Shown here in pieces: positions 1 through 5,541 of a DNA stretch of 5,541 nt. The notes under the pieces are model-generated. The model had not been told where the DNA came from. It saw only the letters and a program-made list of their open reading frames with translations, and did no database searches. Position numbers and translations under genes: made by a program. Source of the stretch: Candidatus Auribacterota bacterium (GTDB taxonomy: Bacteria > Auribacterota > UBA6266); assembly GCA_023136205.1 (NCBI GenBank), contig JAGLRQ010000121.1:1-5541 (forward strand). The letters are read 5' to 3'. Position 1 is the first letter of the stretch. Every line of letters starts with the position of its first letter.

Positions 1-567
1 GTGAGTGAAGACGCGCCGACTAATCCAAAAGGAATATATGAGATTTCCAATCTTACAGCGGAAAAAATTATGAAGGTTTACAATGAAATACACGGTATTA
101 AGACAATACTCTTACGGTTAACTAATATTTACGGGCCGGGATCTCAAATGAAACACTCTCGTTTTGGAGTCGTAAACTGGTTTATTCGGCAGGCTATTGA
201 TAATGAAGTGATTAAAGTTTTTGGTGAAGGAAAGATTTTGAGAGATTTTCTCTATATTGATGACTGTGTTGACGCTATCCTTCTGTCCGCGGTTTCTGAA
301 CAAGCTGTTGGCGAAACGTTTAATGTAGGGATAGATAAACCAACCAGTTTTTTAGATCTGGTAAATTTAATTGTTAAAGTCGCGAAAGCCGGCAGATGGG
401 AGTTCGCGGAATTTTCACCGGAAAGAAAAGCACAGGAACCGGGTGATTTTTATTCGGATATAACTAAAATTAAAAATATTGTGGGCTGGCAGCCCGAAAC
501 AAGACTGGAAGAAGGATTAAAAAATACCATTGATTATTACAGACTGTATAAAAAACATTATTGGTAG
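1..567 (+). CDS. NAD-dependent sugar epimerase/dehydratase (extended SDR family), C-terminal fragment; the 5' end lies outside the window
   Basis: The frame is open from the window edge to TAG at 565-567. The translation shows extended-SDR hallmarks in the expected order: EDAPTNPKGIYEISNLTAEK (active-site Tyr region), LRLTNIYGPG, RDFLYIDDCVDA, ETFNVG, and a C-terminal ...GWQPETRLEEGLKNTIDYY tail. The N-terminal Rossmann GxxGxxG must lie upstream. The GTG at position 1 reflects the window edge, not a real start codon. Confidence 0.85.
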   Translation: MSEDAPTNPKGIYEISNLTAEKIMKVYNEIHGIKTILLRLTNIYGPGSQMKHSRFGVVNWFIRQAIDNEVIKVFGEGKILRDFLYIDDCVDAILLSAVSEQAVGETFNVGIDKPTSFLDLVNLIVKVAKAGRWEFAEFSPERKAQEPGDFYSDITKIKNIVGWQPETRLEEGLKNTIDYYRLYKKHYW

Positions 568-573
568 GGCTCA

Positions 574-1143
574 ATGACAGATAAATCCGTATATATCTAT
601 CCCAACGCAATTGTAGAGACAGAGGATATTGGTGAACATACACGGATATGGGCATTTGTTCATATACTGAAAGGAGCCAGCGTCGGAAATAATTGCAATA
701 TTTGTGAACATTGCTTTATAGAAGATGATGTAAAAATCGGAAATAATGTAACCGTAAAGTCGGGTGTGTACATTTGGAATGGAGTAAGGGTGGAAGACAA
801 TGTTTTTTTGGGCCCCAACGTTACGTTTACAAATGATATATATCCCAGAAGCAAAATTTATGAAAAAAGCTATCCGCGAACTTTTATCAAAAAAGGCGCG
901 AGCATAGGAGCCGGCAGTGTATTGATAGCCGGTATTACTATTGGGCGGTATGCCATGATTGGAGGAGGCTCTGTAGTTACGAAAGATATAAAAGATTACG
1001 AATTAGTATATGGAAATCCGGCAAGGCACCACGGTTATATTTGCGAATGTAAAGAGAAACTTAAATTCAAAAGCGATAAGGTTGTGAAATGTTCATGCGG
1101 GTTATTTTATGTATGTAAAGAAGGGGTTATTTCGAAAGTATGA
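574..1143 (+). CDS. Left-handed beta-helix (hexapeptide-repeat) sugar N-acetyltransferase, WbpD/WlbB-like, with a Cys-rich C-terminal tail
   Basis: 189 aa, with ATG 6 nt after the upstream stop. It has successive imperfect hexapeptide turns ([48 protein letters not shown]). The overall pattern IYPNAIV...RIWAFVHI...[12 protein letters not shown]...GNPAR matches my recollection of the UDP-2-acetamido-3-amino-2,3-dideoxy-glucuronate N-acetyltransferase (WbpD/WlbB) group. The TGA stop at 1141-1143 overlaps the next ATG (ATGA). Confidence 0.9.
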
Positions 1144-2252
1144 CATACCAGAATTCTTCGATATCTTTTTCCGGGTTGGTTGAGCAGTATGAGCGTATTA
1201 AGGATGAGATTAATCCGGCTATTGACCGTGCTGTAAAAAGCGGATGGTATATCCTTGGAAAAGAACTTGAGAGTTTGGAAAAGGAATTCGCGGGTTATTG
1301 CGGGGTTGAATATGCCATTGGATGTGCTTCCGGTACCGAGGCGATAGCGCTGTCTTTAATGTCTTTGGATATTAAAAGCGGGGATGAAGTAATAACGGTA
1401 TCCAATACTGCGGTGCCTACAGTCTCTGCTATTTCCATGGTTGGAGCAATTCCGGTGTTTGTTGATGTTGATGATTATTTCCTGATTGATACCAAAAAGA
1501 TTGAATCTGCCATTACTAAGAAAACAAAGGCTATTATACCTGTTCATCTTTATGGACAGATGGCTGATATGAATGAAATAATGGATATAGCCAGGCGAAA
1601 GAACATCAGAGTTATTGAGGACGCGTGCCAGTCACACGGTGCGGAATGTAAAGGACAAAAAGCAGGTTCTATAGGAGATCTTGGGTGTTTTAGTTTTTAT
1701 CCTACTAAAAATTTAGGTTGTTTTGGTGATGGCGGTGCTATTACCACAAACGATAAAACAATATATGACCGGTTGTCTATGTTAAGAAACTATGGGCAGG
1801 AAAAAAGATATCATAATCCAATTAAAGGAATTAACAGCCGGTTAGACGAAATACAGGCGGCAATATTAAGGGTCAAACTTGAGTATCTTAATGGATGGAA
1901 TAAAAACAGGAAGGAGATTGCTCGTTTATATAATGAGTTACTGTGTGATGTTTGCGTTACGCCTGCCGAAAAAGACGGGTATTCTCATGTTTTTCATCTT
2001 TATGTGGTCAGGGTGGAAAATAGAGAAGCCTTACAGAAGCATTTGAGAAAAAGTGGTATAGATACATTAATTCATTATCCGGTTCCCGTGCATCTCCAGC
2101 AAGCTTATAGTGAGTTACGCTGTAAAAAAGGCGATTTTCCTGTGACGGAACAATTGATGAAGGAAATATTAAGTTTGCCGATTTATCCGGGACTGCCCGA
2201 TGATGCTGTGAAATATATTTGTCGTAAAATTCATGAATTTGAAAAGAATTGA
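1140..2252 (+). CDS. DegT/DnrJ/EryC1/StrS family PLP-dependent nucleotide-sugar aminotransferase
   Basis: 370 aa, a typical length for the family. Family motifs present are [34 protein letters not shown] with the predicted Schiff-base Lys190 (AAA at 1707-1709), [12 protein letters not shown] and SLPIYPGL. The start overlaps the upstream stop by 4 nt. Confidence 0.93.
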
Positions 2253-2260
2253 GTGTATAA

Positions 2261-3226
2261 ATGAAGAAAGATAAAGTTTCAGTTATTATACCGGTTTATT
2301 ATAACAGTGAAAGTCTGCGGGAACTGTATGCTGATTTATGCGGTATTCCGGAACTGAATACTTTGGGAGAAATGGAGATAGTTTTTGTGGATGATGGTTC
2401 CGGTGATAATTCTTTTGAAATTATCCGCGGCCTGGCTTCAAAAGATAAGCGGGTTAGAGGTGTCAAACTTTCCCGTAATTTTGGATCCTTTGTAGCCTGC
2501 CTCGCTGGGTTGGCCCATTGCACGGGCAATTGCGCTGTTATAATATCAGCGGATCTTCAGGATCCTCCTGGTTTAATCGGGGCAATGTACAAAAAATGGA
2601 AGGAAGGCAATAAGGTTGTAATGGCTGTGAGAGAAGAACGAAAGGAGGGCTTTTTTAAAGTCCTGTTTGCCCGTATATTTTATAAGTTATTCCGTTTGCT
2701 CGTAACAAATGACATGCCTAAAAATGGTTTTGATTATGTGCTTATAGATAGACAGGTTGTTGATGTTTTGACTTCGATCCGGGAAAAAAATACAACCCTT
2801 ATGGGGTTGATACTTTGGATGGGTTTTAGCAGAGCAGAGGTTCCGTATACACGGATGGAAAGAAAACATGGAAAGTCACGATGGACGTTATATAAAAAGA
2901 TTAATTATTTTCTCGACTCTATCATGGCTTTTTCCCAGTTCCCAATCCGTATTTTCTCCGTGATTGGAATTTTTCTTTCAGGGATAAGCATTATCGGTAT
3001 TGTCTATGTAATTGTTGCGTATTTTTTAGGATGGATAGAAGGAGTAGCCGGATGGCCTTCGCTTATGGTAATTACTTTGTTTATGTTTGGGATACTATTT
3101 TTAGGCCTGGGGATGATGGGAGAGTACATTTGGAGGAATTTAGAGGAGACTCGCAAAAGGCCGCTATTTCTTGTAGATACTTATTGTAATAAGGTAAAAG
3201 CGGAGGCTAATTTTGAACAAAAATGA
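2261..3226 (+). CDS. Family 2 glycosyltransferase, GtrB/ArnC/DPM1-like polyprenyl-phosphate sugar transferase with two C-terminal TM helices
   Basis: 321 aa. It has an N-terminal GT-A fold signature (VSVIIPVYYNSESL, VFVDDGSGDNS, LSRNFGSFVACLAGL, ISADLQDPPGLI). Two hydrophobic helices follow at about residues 228-257 (FPIRIFSVIGIFLSGISIIGIVYVIVAYFLGW) and 265-288 (WPSLMVITLFMFGILFLGLGMMGE), and the protein ends EYIWRNLEE.RKRPLF. This is the architecture of ArnC and GtrB type enzymes that charge undecaprenyl or dolichyl phosphate. Confidence 0.9.
   Translation: MKKDKVSVIIPVYYNSESLRELYADLCGIPELNTLGEMEIVFVDDGSGDNSFEIIRGLASKDKRVRGVKLSRNFGSFVACLAGLAHCTGNCAVIISADLQDPPGLIGAMYKKWKEGNKVVMAVREERKEGFFKVLFARIFYKLFRLLVTNDMPKNGFDYVLIDRQVVDVLTSIREKNTTLMGLILWMGFSRAEVPYTRMERKHGKSRWTLYKKINYFLDSIMAFSQFPIRIFSVIGIFLSGISIIGIVYVIVAYFLGWIEGVAGWPSLMVITLFMFGILFLGLGMMGEYIWRNLEETRKRPLFLVDTYCNKVKAEANFEQK
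3202..3206 (+). promoter_or_regulatory. Shine-Dalgarno (GGAGG) for the methyltransferase gene, embedded in the 3' end of the glycosyltransferase gene
   Basis: GGAGG at 3202-3206 sits 6 nt upstream of the TTG at 3213. It is the only canonical strong SD I see in the window. It lies inside the upstream CDS, which fits translational coupling. Confidence 0.7.
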
Positions 3227-4241
3227 CCTGTCCTTTTTTCGCTGTCTTTCATGTAAGTCGGACCTGTCGTTAAAGGTTTTTGAAATAAATGAGGGCGATA
3301 AAGATAATGTGAAAGAAGGCGTGCTTTTTTGTCCTTCATGCAAAATTCTGTATCCGATATCAGAGAGCATCGCCCTTCTTTTGGATGTTGATTATTGTAA
3401 ACATTTTGATACCCGAAAATTTTTTCAGAAATGGAGCAAGGAATTTGATTTTGATAAGTATAAACCTTTACGGAAAGAAACCAGTTCCGAGAAGTTTAAA
3501 CAATTAGATTTTTACAACGAAGATTCCAAATCTTATGATGATCTGGTTAGTTATTCTAATTTTTGGAAGGCAAGTGATTGGAACATTCTTCAGGAATGGT
3601 CGGCCGGCCTGCCAAAAGACGGTGTGATTTTAGATGTAGGATGCGGGACAGGCAGATGCGCCGTTCCTTTGGTTAAGGGTGGAAAGCGTGTTATTGCTAC
3701 AGACCTTTCTATTGGTATGCTTAGAAAAGCTGTAGCAAAAAGTGCTGAAGCCGGGGTGAATAATATTACATATTTTTTAGCGGATGCTGAGAGTCTTCCG
3801 TTAAAACCGGATCTGTTTTCGGCGATAATTTCTTTTGGTTTACTGCATCATGTTAATAATCCGGTAACAATAATAAAAAGTACCGAAAAACTTTTGAAAG
3901 CCGGGGGGATATTTTGTGCCCTTGAGAATAATGCGTCACCTCTTCGTCCTATTTTTGAAATGTTAATGAAGATTTGGAAATTGTGGAATGAAGAAGCTGG
4001 AAGCCATCCTGTATTCAAGCTAAAAGAGATGAAAGCTTTTATAGAGAATAGCGGGATGTCCCCCAAAATACGTACAAGTACCTTTCTTCCTCCTCATCTG
4101 TGTAATCTTATGAGTTATAACATGGCCAGAAAGATGTTATTTCTTACAGATTGGATTTTTAACCGTATTCCGGTTGTAAGTAATTTTGGCGGGCAGCTTG
4201 TAGTAAGAGCAGTTAAAACTAAAAAAATCCCTCGAGCTTAA
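3213..4241 (+). CDS. Class I SAM-dependent methyltransferase (Methyltransf_11/25-like) fused to an N-terminal Trm112-like zinc-ribbon domain
   Basis: 342 aa with a TTG start (hand-checked: ttg aac aaa aat gac ...). The N-terminus FFRCLSCKSDL...EGVLFCPSCKILYPISESIALLL has Cys11/14/41/44 (nt 3243-3344), which is the Trm112/YcaR type zinc ribbon. SAM motif I is ILDVGCGTG (3627-3653). Then come the acidic loop VIATDLS, ADAESLP, the motif II-like ISFGLLHH, and LLKAGGIF. TAA stop at 4239-4241. Confidence 0.88.
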   Translation: MNKNDLSFFRCLSCKSDLSLKVFEINEGDKDNVKEGVLFCPSCKILYPISESIALLLDVDYCKHFDTRKFFQKWSKEFDFDKYKPLRKETSSEKFKQLDFYNEDSKSYDDLVSYSNFWKASDWNILQEWSAGLPKDGVILDVGCGTGRCAVPLVKGGKRVIATDLSIGMLRKAVAKSAEAGVNNITYFLADAESLPLKPDLFSAIISFGLLHHVNNPVTIIKSTEKLLKAGGIFCALENNASPLRPIFEMLMKIWKLWNEEAGSHPVFKLKEMKAFIENSGMSPKIRTSTFLPPHLCNLMSYNMARKMLFLTDWIFNRIPVVSNFGGQLVVRAVKTKKIPRA

Positions 4242-4259
4242 GAAAGATAATAACGCAAA

Positions 4260-5541
4260 ATGAAAGTATTGTTAATTAATGCTCCGTCAAAGTATGCGGC
4301 AGTGACTACATCGGATTGGGATACCACAGCAGAGGATATAGGCGCTTTTCCTCCGATTGGATTAAGTTATTTAGCCGGTTATCTTGTAAAAAATTCCTCG
4401 CATGAAGTGCATATCATGGATACCCTCGCTGAACAACTTGACTATGATGGAATCGAAAAAAGGGTTAAAGACTATCAACCTGAAATGGTGGCTATTACGG
4501 CGTTTACTCCGACTTTTTATGACGTTTTGCATGTTTCCCGCATAGTGAAAAAGAATATTCCGGATTGTTATGTATGTATCGGGGGAGCTCATGTAACATC
4601 ATATCCCGTTGAAACGATGAGCCATAAAGAGATAGATTTTCTTATTCACGGGGAAGGGGAAATTATTTTTTCTAAGCTTCTTGATGTCCTTGAAAAAGAT
4701 AAAAACGTGTCAGTTTTGGATGGAATTAGTTTCCGGGCTGACGGCCGTGTTATTCACAAGACAGAAAATAGAGGCTATATTGATGATGTAAATTCACTTC
4801 CATCTCCTGCCTTTAATCTTTTGCCGTTAGATAGATATAAGAGCGCTATAGGTACCGGTAATACTGTTGGGGTAATCGCGTCCTCCAGAGGCTGCCCTTA
4901 CGAATGTACCTATTGTAACCGTCCTTACCGTACTTATAGGTCTTACAGCAATGACAGAATAATATCTGAAATGGGTTTCTTTTATAACCGCGGAATAAAA
5001 GAATTTGTGTTTTTTGATGATATGTTTAATCTTACCCCAAAGCGTGTTATTGAAATAAGCGATGCTATTATCGCGGAATATCCTGATGTAACCTGGTCTT
5101 TCCGGGGCAGGGTGGATCAGGTCACGGAAGAGATGGTACGTAAGGCGAAGGAGGCAGGATGCAGACAAATTCTATTTGGTATTGAAGCCGCGAGAGATGA
5201 AGATTTAAAAGCCATCAAAAAGAAAATTACTACAAAGCAGGTAATAGATGGTATTGCTATCTGCAAAAAATTAGGGCTTGAAACAAGCACTAATTGGATT
5301 ATTGGATTGCCCACGCACAAAAGCCGGAATGATGTTCTTGATTTACTGGATTTTGCCGTAAAAAGCGGGTCCGATTATGCTCAATTCAATATACTTATTC
5401 CGTATGCCGGAACAGAAATATTCGATGAAGGCGTGAAGAAAAAAGTTTTATCGGCCAATTTTTGGAATGAATATGTTCTTAATCCTACACCGAATGCGTA
5501 TATTCCCATTTGGGAAGAGTATCTCAGCCGGAAAGAATTAA
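4260..5541 (+). CDS. B12-binding-domain radical SAM protein (class B radical SAM, COG1032-like); the 3' end lies outside the window
   Basis: This ORF is absent from the supplied track. I translated it by hand codon by codon. The ATG at 4260 follows an in-frame TAA at 4251-4253, and the frame has no stop through 5541 (427 codons plus 1 nt). The N-terminal MKVLLINAP...FPPIGLSYLAGYL...MVAITAFTPTF...VCIGGAHVTSYP...DFLIHGEGE is a cobalamin-binding-domain pattern without a DxHxxG His ligand, as is usual in class B enzymes. The radical SAM core is VIASSRGCPYECTYCN (Cys212/216/219, nt 4893-4916), followed by FVFFDDMFN, ILFGIEAA, NWIIGLP, and a YAQFNILIPYAGTE...FWNEYVLNPTPNAYIPIWEEYLS tail. Confidence 0.9.
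   Translation, partial: MKVLLINAPSKYAAVTTSDWDTTAEDIGAFPPIGLSYLAGYLVKNSSHEVHIMDTLAEQLDYDGIEKRVKDYQPEMVAITAFTPTFYDVLHVSRIVKKNIPDCYVCIGGAHVTSYPVETMSHKEIDFLIHGEGEIIFSKLLDVLEKDKNVSVLDGISFRADGRVIHKTENRGYIDDVNSLPSPAFNLLPLDRYKSAIGTGNTVGVIASSRGCPYECTYCNRPYRTYRSYSNDRIISEMGFFYNRGIKEFVFFDDMFNLTPKRVIEISDAIIAEYPDVTWSFRGRVDQVTEEMVRKAKEAGCRQILFGIEAARDEDLKAIKKKITTKQVIDGIAICKKLGLETSTNWIIGLPTHKSRNDVLDLLDFAVKSGSDYAQFNILIPYAGTEIFDEGVKKKVLSANFWNEYVLNPTPNAYIPIWEEYLSRKEL

Follow-up and report, generated by a model that had tools for sequence, protein, structure and literature searches.

Six genes carried by a 5,541-nucleotide (nt) stretch of DNA from Candidatus Auribacterota (formerly Aureabacteria) appear, on balance, to encode a single lipid-carrier glycosylation pathway, of either the three-component or the Arn-like kind, that makes and transfers a tailored amino sugar. 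This stretch, called the window here, is a complete contig of a metagenome-assembled genome (MAG; proteins MCK4948146-49). Its six open reading frames (ORFs) encode, in order, a short-chain dehydrogenase/reductase (SDR; ORF1), a left-handed β-helix (LbH) acetyltransferase (ORF2), a DegT-family aminotransferase (ORF3), a GtrB/ArnC-type family 2 glycosyltransferase (GT2; ORF4), a Trm112-fused class I methyltransferase (ORF5) and a B12-binding radical S-adenosylmethionine (SAM) enzyme (ORF6).

Gene order and linkage across phyla

All six genes lie on the + strand with spacings of 6, -4, 8, -14 and 18 nt. These coordinates bear out an earlier note on this DNA, made from the letters alone, which had described same-strand genes with gaps of 18 nt or less and two overlaps. 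The domain matches of all six proteins exceed Pfam gathering scores, and Pfam and NCBIfam profile searches uphold each of the six domain assignments made in that note. No terminator-like site was found on the + strand of the window, and promoter-like sites are no more frequent there than in shuffled sequence; co-transcription of the six genes is therefore plausible. The window is identical to positions 7741-13281 of a locus (L001) from a 291-kb scaffold of the same population, in which the six genes sit within about 20 co-directional genes of a glycan locus of at least 20 kb. What the earlier note called an operon thus holds as a tight same-strand block but not as a stand-alone unit, the block being a slice of a much larger locus. 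Rfam gave no match in the window, and no riboswitch, for cobalamin or otherwise, in the window or L001. At around nt 3750-5000, in the second half of ORF5 and on across ORF6, the coding-strand GC skew drops from ~0.25 to ~0.1, while the GC content stays near 0.39.

Orthologues of ORF6 with 45-78% identity occur in Omnitrophota, Sedimentisphaerales, Zixibacteria, Auribacterota, Nitrospinota, Desulfovibrionaceae, Tectomicrobia and Altiarchaeota, the cultured hosts among the Desulfovibrionaceae being Solidesulfovibrio and Fundidesulfovibrio. Their neighbourhoods were taken from orthologue contigs and from a metagenome scan with an orthologue-specific C-terminal alignment, and all ORFs were compared with the L001 proteins. 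The count covered de-duplicated loci that extend at least 3 kb to either side of the radical SAM gene. A full-length GtrB-like GT2 is encoded no more than 6 kb away in 11 of the 14 orthologue loci (at least 45% identity) but in only 2 of 45 control loci, which carry B12-radical-SAM paralogues that are 25-37% identical (Fisher p=9e-8, odds ratio ~79). The matches listed by a full-length-alignment profile search, which settled on generic B12-radical-SAM motifs, were paralogues of 25-34% identity, and their loci served in the control set. Omitting a near-identical strain leaves 10 of 13 orthologue loci (p=3e-7). This difference argues that the coupling of the radical SAM enzyme with the GT2 block is not due to chance.

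The conserved neighbourhoods take three forms. The first has the gene order of the window followed by genes for polytopic proteins, either related to M543 and M512, the two proteins encoded directly downstream of the window in L001, or of other types (L097, L143 and L146). L143 retains SDR-LbH-DegT-GT2-methyltransferase-radical SAM exactly as in the window, with a radical SAM enzyme that is 70% identical, and L097 retains DegT-GT2 (78%)-methyltransferase (65%)-radical SAM (72%), followed further on by M543 (45%) and M512 (34%) homologues. Partial versions read methyltransferase-radical SAM-GT2-SDR-M512 (L100/L101), LbH-DegT-GT2-methyltransferase-radical SAM-carbamoyltransferase-YfhO (L144) and LbH::FdtA-GT2::DegT-methyltransferase-methyltransferase-radical SAM (L145). 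The second form, of the Sedimentisphaerales type, consists of radical SAM (60%)-GT2 (37%, full length)-SDR-methyltransferase flanked by polytopic proteins of 740-800 amino acids (aa; L092, L096 and relatives). The third reads polytopic protein-small transmembrane (TM) protein-SDR (with a YEISL motif)-LbH-GT2::DegT-LbH (254 aa)-radical SAM (L093, L111, L112 and L115), and Nitrospinota, Desulfovibrionaceae and related metagenome loci share its core of SDR (56-61%)-LbH-GT2::DegT-LbH-radical SAM (46-49%). In the cultured bacterium Fundidesulfovibrio butyratiphilus (L147; GCA_054657235.1, contig BAAHXA010000002.1, about 392-403 kb) it forms a compact cassette that also includes polytopic proteins and an EamA-type transporter; the genes on either side (TetR, RND efflux) are unrelated, and no other sugar pathway lies inside the cassette.

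The GT2::DegT fusions, in which the DegT domain is C-terminal to the GT2, are present in L093, L145 and L147. As Rosetta-stone fusions, they connect the lipid-carrier transferase with the amino-sugar module. The earlier note had allowed that the last two genes might merely abut the sugar genes by chance; instead, the orthologues adjoin GtrB-like GT2s, the SDR/LbH/DegT set and methyltransferases across phyla.

Several further features accompany the radical SAM gene. Immediately upstream of it, loci of the Desulfovibrionaceae/Nitrospinota form always encode an LbH acyltransferase of 254 aa, with 51-64% identity between loci (L147, L091, L093, L109, L111-L113, L115 and L117), even where no GT2 is nearby; this enzyme seems to take the place of the Trm112-methyltransferase. 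In L143 and L144 a carbamoyltransferase gene (Carbam_trans_N/C) directly follows the radical SAM gene, an arrangement reminiscent of the methylase-carbamoyltransferase pairing of moenomycin biosynthesis. More distant relatives, 35-44% identical (L124-L136, for example L128, L130, L132 and L136), are found in arrays where three to five B12-type radical SAM paralogues lie in tandem and no GtrB-like GT2 is encoded, and they probably carry out different, iterative chemistry.

Predicted amino-sugar module and lipid-carrier transfer

In the pathway that we propose, the SDR, which is atypical, would first make a keto nucleotide-sugar, presumably the 3-keto form, which the DegT enzyme would aminate and the LbH enzyme would N-acetylate to a nucleotide-linked 3-acetamido-3-deoxy(-6-deoxy)hexose. 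The GT2 would then load the sugar onto polyprenyl phosphate at the cytoplasmic face. Two enzymes would tailor the sugar in the cytoplasm, on the nucleotide or the lipid carrier: the Trm112-methyltransferase, which is soluble, by O- or N-methylation, and the radical SAM enzyme, most likely by methylating an unactivated carbon. After flipping, the downstream polytopic proteins (M543/M512, or YfhO in other lineages) would pass the sugar to an acceptor, presumably an envelope glycan or protein.

ORF4 aligns with GtrB (PDB 5EKP) at 195 bits (residues 5-306 of 321 with residues 27-327 of 341) and with ArnC (9HWJ, 9BHC and 8VXH) at 142-147 bits over its full length; its match to DPMS reaches 50 bits. 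It has the motifs VDDGSGD (nt 2387-2407) and ADLQD (nt 2549-2563) and two predicted C-terminal TM helices (nt 2939-3034 and 3053-3133; residues 227-258 and 265-291). The full-length homology, the ADLQD motif and the paired helices agree with the ArnC/GtrB type assigned in the earlier note. ORF4 scores below the NCBIfam cut-offs for PgfS (219 versus 500 bits) and ArnC (159 versus 529 bits), and is a member of the GtrB/ArnC class rather than an equivalog of ArnC or PgfS. It is predicted to move the sugar from the nucleotide onto polyprenyl phosphate.

Among sugar aminotransferases of known structure, ORF3 is closer to the enzymes that act at C-3, which score 280-432 bits (7B0D, 432; QdtB, 393; DesV 2OGA, 324; WbpE, 291), than to those that act at C-4, which score at most 203 bits (perosamine synthase, 203; ArnB, 172-178; WecE-type, 139-141). 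The matches of ORF2 are to 7S43 (189 bits), 4MZU (WxcM-like, FdtD-type; 185 bits), WlbB 3MQG (143 bits) and QdtC 3FS8 (73 bits), all of which we take, from the Holden-laboratory structures, to be 3-amino-sugar N-acetyltransferases. By best homology, ORF2 is probably an acetyltransferase for 3-amino sugars of the QdtC/WlbB/FdtD type. A literature search by the PDB codes 7B0D, 7S3U and 7N63 returned nothing useful. Because ORF3 and ORF2 independently score highest against C-3 enzymes, their product is predicted to be a 3-acetamido sugar, and we count as support a fusion in L145, where an LbH domain is joined to an FdtA 3,4-ketoisomerase domain and no SDR is present. An Arn-pathway reading (C-4, L-Ara4N-like) was dropped, both proteins scoring far better against C-3 enzymes. 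The SDR, LbH and DegT families that the earlier note had assigned to an amino-sugar module stand, with the refinement that the enzymes are of C-3 type rather than Arn-like and that the SDR is atypical. ORF2 also ends in a Cys-rich tail (CxC...CxC, nt 1042-1101) that resembles a small metal-binding motif; its closest solved homologue aligns only as far as residue 146.

The window holds only the C-terminal part of the ORF1 SDR, the complete gene being present in L001 (Table 1). ORF1 is GalE-like, its best solved structures being GalE 4ZRM (136 bits) and RmlB 6BI4 (113 bits). The catalytic Thr and Tyr are retained, but the catalytic Lys is replaced by Asn (YEISN, nt 37-51), leaving the triad incomplete. 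The HMMER alignment places YEISN opposite YGIAK and YSSSK, and orthologues (56-72% identical) read YEISL at the YxxxK position, which points to an SDR subfamily without the catalytic lysine. A role as an NDP-hexose 4,6-dehydratase was rejected, as the Asp-Glu pair that follows the catalytic Thr in such dehydratases was not found in ORF1, where KTGTRGQYG aligns with STDEVYG of RmlB 6BI4. In ORF1-type SDRs a conserved G[ST]RGQYG stands in for the SS(T)xxxYG or STDE segment, and the genes of this subfamily always adjoin LbH and DegT genes. L145 has the LbH::FdtA fusion instead of an SDR, and another related locus carries a GFO/IDH/MocA::LbH fusion. We infer only that the atypical SDR may supply the 3-keto sugar by a route that replaces the FdtA ketoisomerase or GFO-type enzymes.

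ORF5 starts with TTG, 8 nt downstream of a GGAGG. Its zinc ribbon matches Trm112p (PF03966) at 24.1 bits (cut-off 22) and has CxxC pairs at nt 3243-3254 and 3330-3341, and the methyltransferase domain (Methyltransf_25/11; Methyltransf_25, 72 bits) has SAM motif I around nt 3627-3656. Residues C11, C14, C40, C43, G143, G145 and G147 are invariant across 18 homologues. The family comprises about 50 clusters at 38% identity or more, with no named member. Adjacency of the methyltransferase and radical SAM genes is seen directly in L097, L100/L101, L143, L144, L145 and L146, and members of the two families apparently share a contig, as judged from contigs of equal length, in at least 12 further cases. 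The Trm112-methyltransferase that the earlier note had named as a pathway partner thus holds in this and some other lineages, but not in Desulfovibrionaceae and Nitrospinota. In the strain variant L003, a seeming loss of the methyltransferase together with a shortened radical SAM gene is a scaffold gap of Ns and not biology.

Chemistry of the radical SAM enzyme

ORF6 has an N-terminal B12-binding Rossmann domain (nt 4347-4679, with GGAH at nt 4581-4592; PF02310, 66 bits against a cut-off of 32) followed by a Radical_SAM domain (PF04055, 79 bits) with the cluster motif CPYECTYC (nt 4893-4916, residues 212-219). Its AlphaFold2 model (predicted local distance difference test score, pLDDT, 87; predicted template modelling score, pTM, 0.86) is a confident two-domain class B fold that Foldseek matches to AprD4, TsrM, MgmA, CysS, OxsB and TokK (E 1e-18 to 1e-23, TMq 0.6-0.69). 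AprD4 is the best solved structure by both sequence (84 bits) and fold (E 2e-23, TMq 0.69). All 32 NCBIfam matches, which include the named class B subfamilies BchE, HpnJ, HpnR, PhpK and ApyD among others, lie under their cut-offs, the highest being BchE (186 versus 481 bits), HpnJ (160 versus 578 bits), ApyD (159 bits) and HpnR (124 bits). With no match near any family threshold, comparison of hidden Markov models and folds cannot separate a methylase from a non-methylase; nor can the fold alone decide on methyl transfer, AprD4 being a non-methylase.

The majority of the class B enzymes that have been characterised are methylases of unactivated carbons, and these carbons include the sugar carbons modified by GenK, GenD1 and MoeK5 (PMC9204698). 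Methylation of an unactivated carbon is the reading of ORF6 that we prefer, and we allot it roughly one half of the probability. We also put forward, more tentatively, that this B12-type radical SAM family may act on a polyprenyl-phosphate- or nucleotide-linked 3-acetamido sugar in a three-component system, either adding a C-methyl branch to an envelope sugar of anaerobes or rearranging its ring.

One quarter of the probability goes to the same pathway with ORF6 carrying out non-methylating radical chemistry, that is a rearrangement, dehydration or deoxygenation of the sugar. This could take the form of an AprD4/AprD3-like 1,2-diol dehydration followed by reduction by the SDR, or of an HpnJ/Cds-like ring contraction of a lipid-linked hexosamine. 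AprD4 is a sugar 1,2-diol dehydratase partnered with an SDR, and an SDR gene nearly always adjoins the radical SAM gene in the loci studied here. The two best NCBIfam models, BchE and HpnJ, are both described as non-methylases (PMC9204698), and the set of HpnI, HpnK and HpnJ provides a precedent for radical SAM chemistry on lipid-linked glucosamine, in which HpnJ contracts the ring of the sugar placed on the lipid by the GT2 HpnI (PMC13459092). However, the BchE and HpnJ scores are far under their cut-offs, and the AprD4 sequence match is confined to the radical SAM core of ORF6 (residues 174-395). The N-terminal domain of ORF6 scores above the Pfam cut-off for B12 binding and can be aligned with TokK, OxsB and CysS, which are cobalamin enzymes. 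AprD4 is not known to use cobalamin, and methylases predominate among characterised class B enzymes. Of the earlier note's proposal of methyl transfer by a B12/radical SAM enzyme, for which it had itself named a non-methylating alternative, the class B family stands, whereas methylation is not upheld by the nearest models, which are non-methylases.

The glycan island, related systems and implications

In L001 the block is preceded by genes for an HldE-like kinase/adenylyltransferase, a GmhA-like SIS isomerase, two radical SAM/SPASM proteins, a transketolase split into N and Pyr halves and a short DPM1/PpgS-like GT2 (Table 1). This module suggests a chain-extended or branched heptose-type sugar that is also destined for a lipid carrier; its set of SIS, transketolase and SPASM genes is found again in Solidesulfovibrio fructosivorans (L091) and in L143. 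The glycan locus is bordered upstream by a divergent AlgX-domain gene (SGNH-type polysaccharide O-acetylation). Downstream of the block come M543 and M512, then RfbF, a CDP-glucose-dehydratase-like SDR, another SDR and a second B12-type radical SAM enzyme; RfbF, outside the window, is the only protein to reach an NCBIfam cut-off. In a 93%-identical strain variant (L146), the genes that come next encode a DegT-like protein, a third GT2, which is also GtrB-like (31% identity) and has two C-terminal TM helices, and an M512 homologue. A second unit of sugar pathway, B12 radical SAM enzyme (437 aa), DegT-like protein (437 aa), GtrB-like GT2 (312 aa) and polytopic M512 homologue (743 aa) can be recognised across L001 and L146. 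The island repeats one theme, in which the genes of a sugar pathway are combined with those for a radical SAM enzyme, a GT2 of the polyprenyl-phosphate type and a polytopic membrane protein.

M543 (543 aa) and M512 (512 aa) are polytopic, with 10-14 predicted TM segments and no Pfam domain. M543 has a weak 31-bit NCBIfam match to the LA_3751/LA_3752 putative glycosyltransferase family, and in Foldseek GT-C enzymes make up all of its top matches, PglB among them with a probability of 0.97, for a model that is poor (pLDDT 55, E values of 0.06 or worse, TM-score ~0.3). Both proteins are possibly GT-C transferases, although neither appears to be a recognisable member of any described GT-C family. 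W72-P73-D74 in the first loop and R187-E188-S189 are invariant in the M543 family, which has only 16 clusters among 5.8 billion proteins. Two of its members end in a Laminin_G_3 domain (PF13385), which would suit extracytoplasmic glycan handling. The related loci L093, L095 and L144 encode Pfam YfhO proteins. The earlier note had directed attention to the flanks for a GT-C transferase and a small flippase: polytopic, possibly GT-C, proteins do lie downstream, but a small flippase does not appear among the genes called within 10 kb.

Table 1 Location of the window genes and of selected features in L001 and related loci
Feature	Location	Strand	Description	Basis or remark
ORF1	window 1..567	+	C-terminal 188 aa of 330-aa extended SDR	Pfam Epimerase; 5' end cut by contig end
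ORF2	window 574..1143	+	LbH N-acetyltransferase, 189 aa	Pfam Hexapep
ORF3	window 1140..2252	+	DegT-family pyridoxal phosphate-dependent sugar aminotransferase, 370 aa	Pfam DegT_DnrJ_EryC1, 401 bits
ORF4	window 2261..3226	+	GtrB/ArnC-type GT2, 321 aa	Pfam Glycos_transf_2
ORF5	window 3213..4241	+	Trm112-like zinc ribbon and class I SAM methyltransferase, 342 aa	Pfam
ORF6	window 4260..5541	+	Radical SAM enzyme of class B architecture, first 427 of 483 aa	Pfam; 3' end cut
Complete SDR gene of ORF1	L001 7315-8307
M543	L001 13604-15235		Polytopic membrane protein, candidate GT-C
AlgX-domain gene	L001 1-571	-	Divergent
Upstream heptose-type module	L001 861-7312
Second unit	L001 16923-20962; L146 13632-21791
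254-aa LbH locus	L147 9235-11461
Carbamoyltransferase	L143 11463-13193; L144 5787-7511

The size of this island bears on a different account, in which the product of ORF1-4 is not the substrate of ORF5 and ORF6; these would instead act on another sugar or on the finished polymer, for example through chain-terminating methyl groups, and adjacency would reflect no more than a shared glycan island. The heptose genes, the split transketolase, the two SPASM enzymes, the CDP-glucose module and the second B12-type radical SAM enzyme within at least 20 kb would fit this account, as would the Wzm/Wzt transporters with a Wzt_C domain in several related loci. We nevertheless regard it as improbable, as the linkage of the radical SAM gene to the GT2 is kept in very different contexts, including the compact Fundidesulfovibrio cassette, and is enriched about 79-fold (as an odds ratio) over paralogue loci. 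A fortuitous adjacency, with ORF5 and ORF6 as a separate transcription unit of unrelated function, is close to refuted by the 14-nt overlap of ORF4 and ORF5, the 18-nt gap between ORF5 and ORF6, the lack of a + strand terminator and the cross-phylum synteny.

Several points weigh against a single lipid-carrier pathway for all six genes. The window lies within a large multi-sugar locus, so another sugar could be the substrate of ORF5 and ORF6, and the curated models and structure nearest to ORF6 are those of non-methylases. The activity of the SDR is uncertain because its catalytic lysine is missing. Desulfovibrionaceae and Nitrospinota cassettes have a second LbH enzyme where a Trm112-methyltransferase would be expected from the window. 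No GtrB-like GT2 is encoded within 10 kb of the radical SAM orthologue in Solidesulfovibrio fructosivorans or in an Altiarchaeota MAG, in both of which the orthologue lies in a sugar locus. On the membrane side, the M543 model is poor, profile comparison with hhalign ties neither M543 nor M512 to YfhO, and no small flippase of the GtrA, GtcA or ArnE/F type was called within 10 kb on either side in L001 or L146. We found no family member with biochemical characterisation.

The proposed pathway shares its central step with three-component systems (GtrA/GtrB/GtrC, CsbB/GtcA/YfhO, GacI/GacL and the pentofuranose systems; PMC11127046), in which a GtrB-type GT2 with two C-terminal TM helices makes a polyprenyl-phosphate-linked monosaccharide and large polytopic proteins are found alongside, as here (YfhO in L093, L095 and L144). 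Those systems, however, draw on a ready-made, common nucleotide sugar and have no tailoring enzymes; the present one includes a dedicated amino-sugar module together with a Trm112-methyltransferase and a radical SAM enzyme of the B12 type. The Arn system for L-Ara4N (ArnA, B, C, D, E/F and T) follows the same logic of SDR, DegT enzyme, N-acylation, ArnC-type transfer, flipping and GT-C transfer. It differs in using a formyltransferase rather than an LbH acetyltransferase and an ArnA-type decarboxylase rather than a GalE-like SDR, and ORF3 is much closer to QdtB than to ArnB (393 versus 172-178 bits). The block has no ArnD-type deacylase, and its radical SAM enzyme and methyltransferase are extra.

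Other likenesses are to the QdtA/B/C and FdtA/B/C(D) pathways (dTDP-Qui3NAc and dTDP-Fuc3NAc) and to WbpB/E/D (a UDP-2,3-diacetamido sugar): ORF3 is nearest to QdtB and WbpE, ORF2 is nearest to QdtC, WlbB and FdtD, and L145 carries the FdtD-type LbH::FdtA fusion. The window has neither the cupin 3,4-ketoisomerase nor the GFO-type 3-dehydrogenase of these pathways, the Lys-less SDR standing in that place, and its product would go to a lipid-carrier GT2. In the HpnI/HpnK/HpnJ pathway (hopanoid cyclitol ether) and with calditol synthase (Cds), a hexosamine is first attached to a lipid by a GT2, after which a radical SAM enzyme with a B12 domain reshapes the lipid-linked sugar, and HpnJ is the second-best NCBIfam model for ORF6. 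Here the lipid would be polyprenyl phosphate rather than a hopanoid, and no hopanoid genes are nearby. GenK, GenD1, MoeK5 and AprD4 are likewise B12-domain radical SAM enzymes that act on amino or lipid-linked sugars, but they belong to actinomycete secondary metabolism, whereas the ORF6 family occurs in envelope-glycan loci of anaerobes and its similarity to them is low (for AprD4, in the core domain only).

A search of the full-text literature found no paper linking B12-type radical SAM enzymes to GtrB-, ArnC- or YfhO-type systems. The earlier note had been aware of no characterised ArnC/Gtr-type pathway that includes both the methyltransferase and the radical SAM enzyme, and we likewise found no characterised homologue or paper. 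Judged by sequence, the module differs from known systems in its built-in radical SAM enzyme, its lineage-limited Trm112-methyltransferase, its Lys-less SDR and its candidate membrane transferases of no described family.

Radical SAM and methyltransferase genes without an assigned role are common in the glycan islands of uncultured bacteria. What sets this case above the ordinary is the cross-phylum conservation, the fusions and the compact cassette in a cultured sulfate reducer. Three-component systems are viewed as simple machinery for decorating finished envelope polymers with common sugars, and the version described here, conserved in multiple phyla, departs from that view. It predicts that Auribacterota, Omnitrophota, Planctomycetota, Nitrospinota and Desulfovibrionaceae bear on their surface a tailored sugar that is C-branched or rearranged, and that cobalamin radical SAM enzymes have a further, new class of substrates, with the SDR subfamily that lacks the catalytic lysine posing a second enzymological question. 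Because the core cassette is a compact operon in the cultured Fundidesulfovibrio butyratiphilus, the prediction is directly testable. If it is true, radical SAM tailoring of a lipid-carrier monosaccharide would have no described precedent in envelope glycan biosynthesis.

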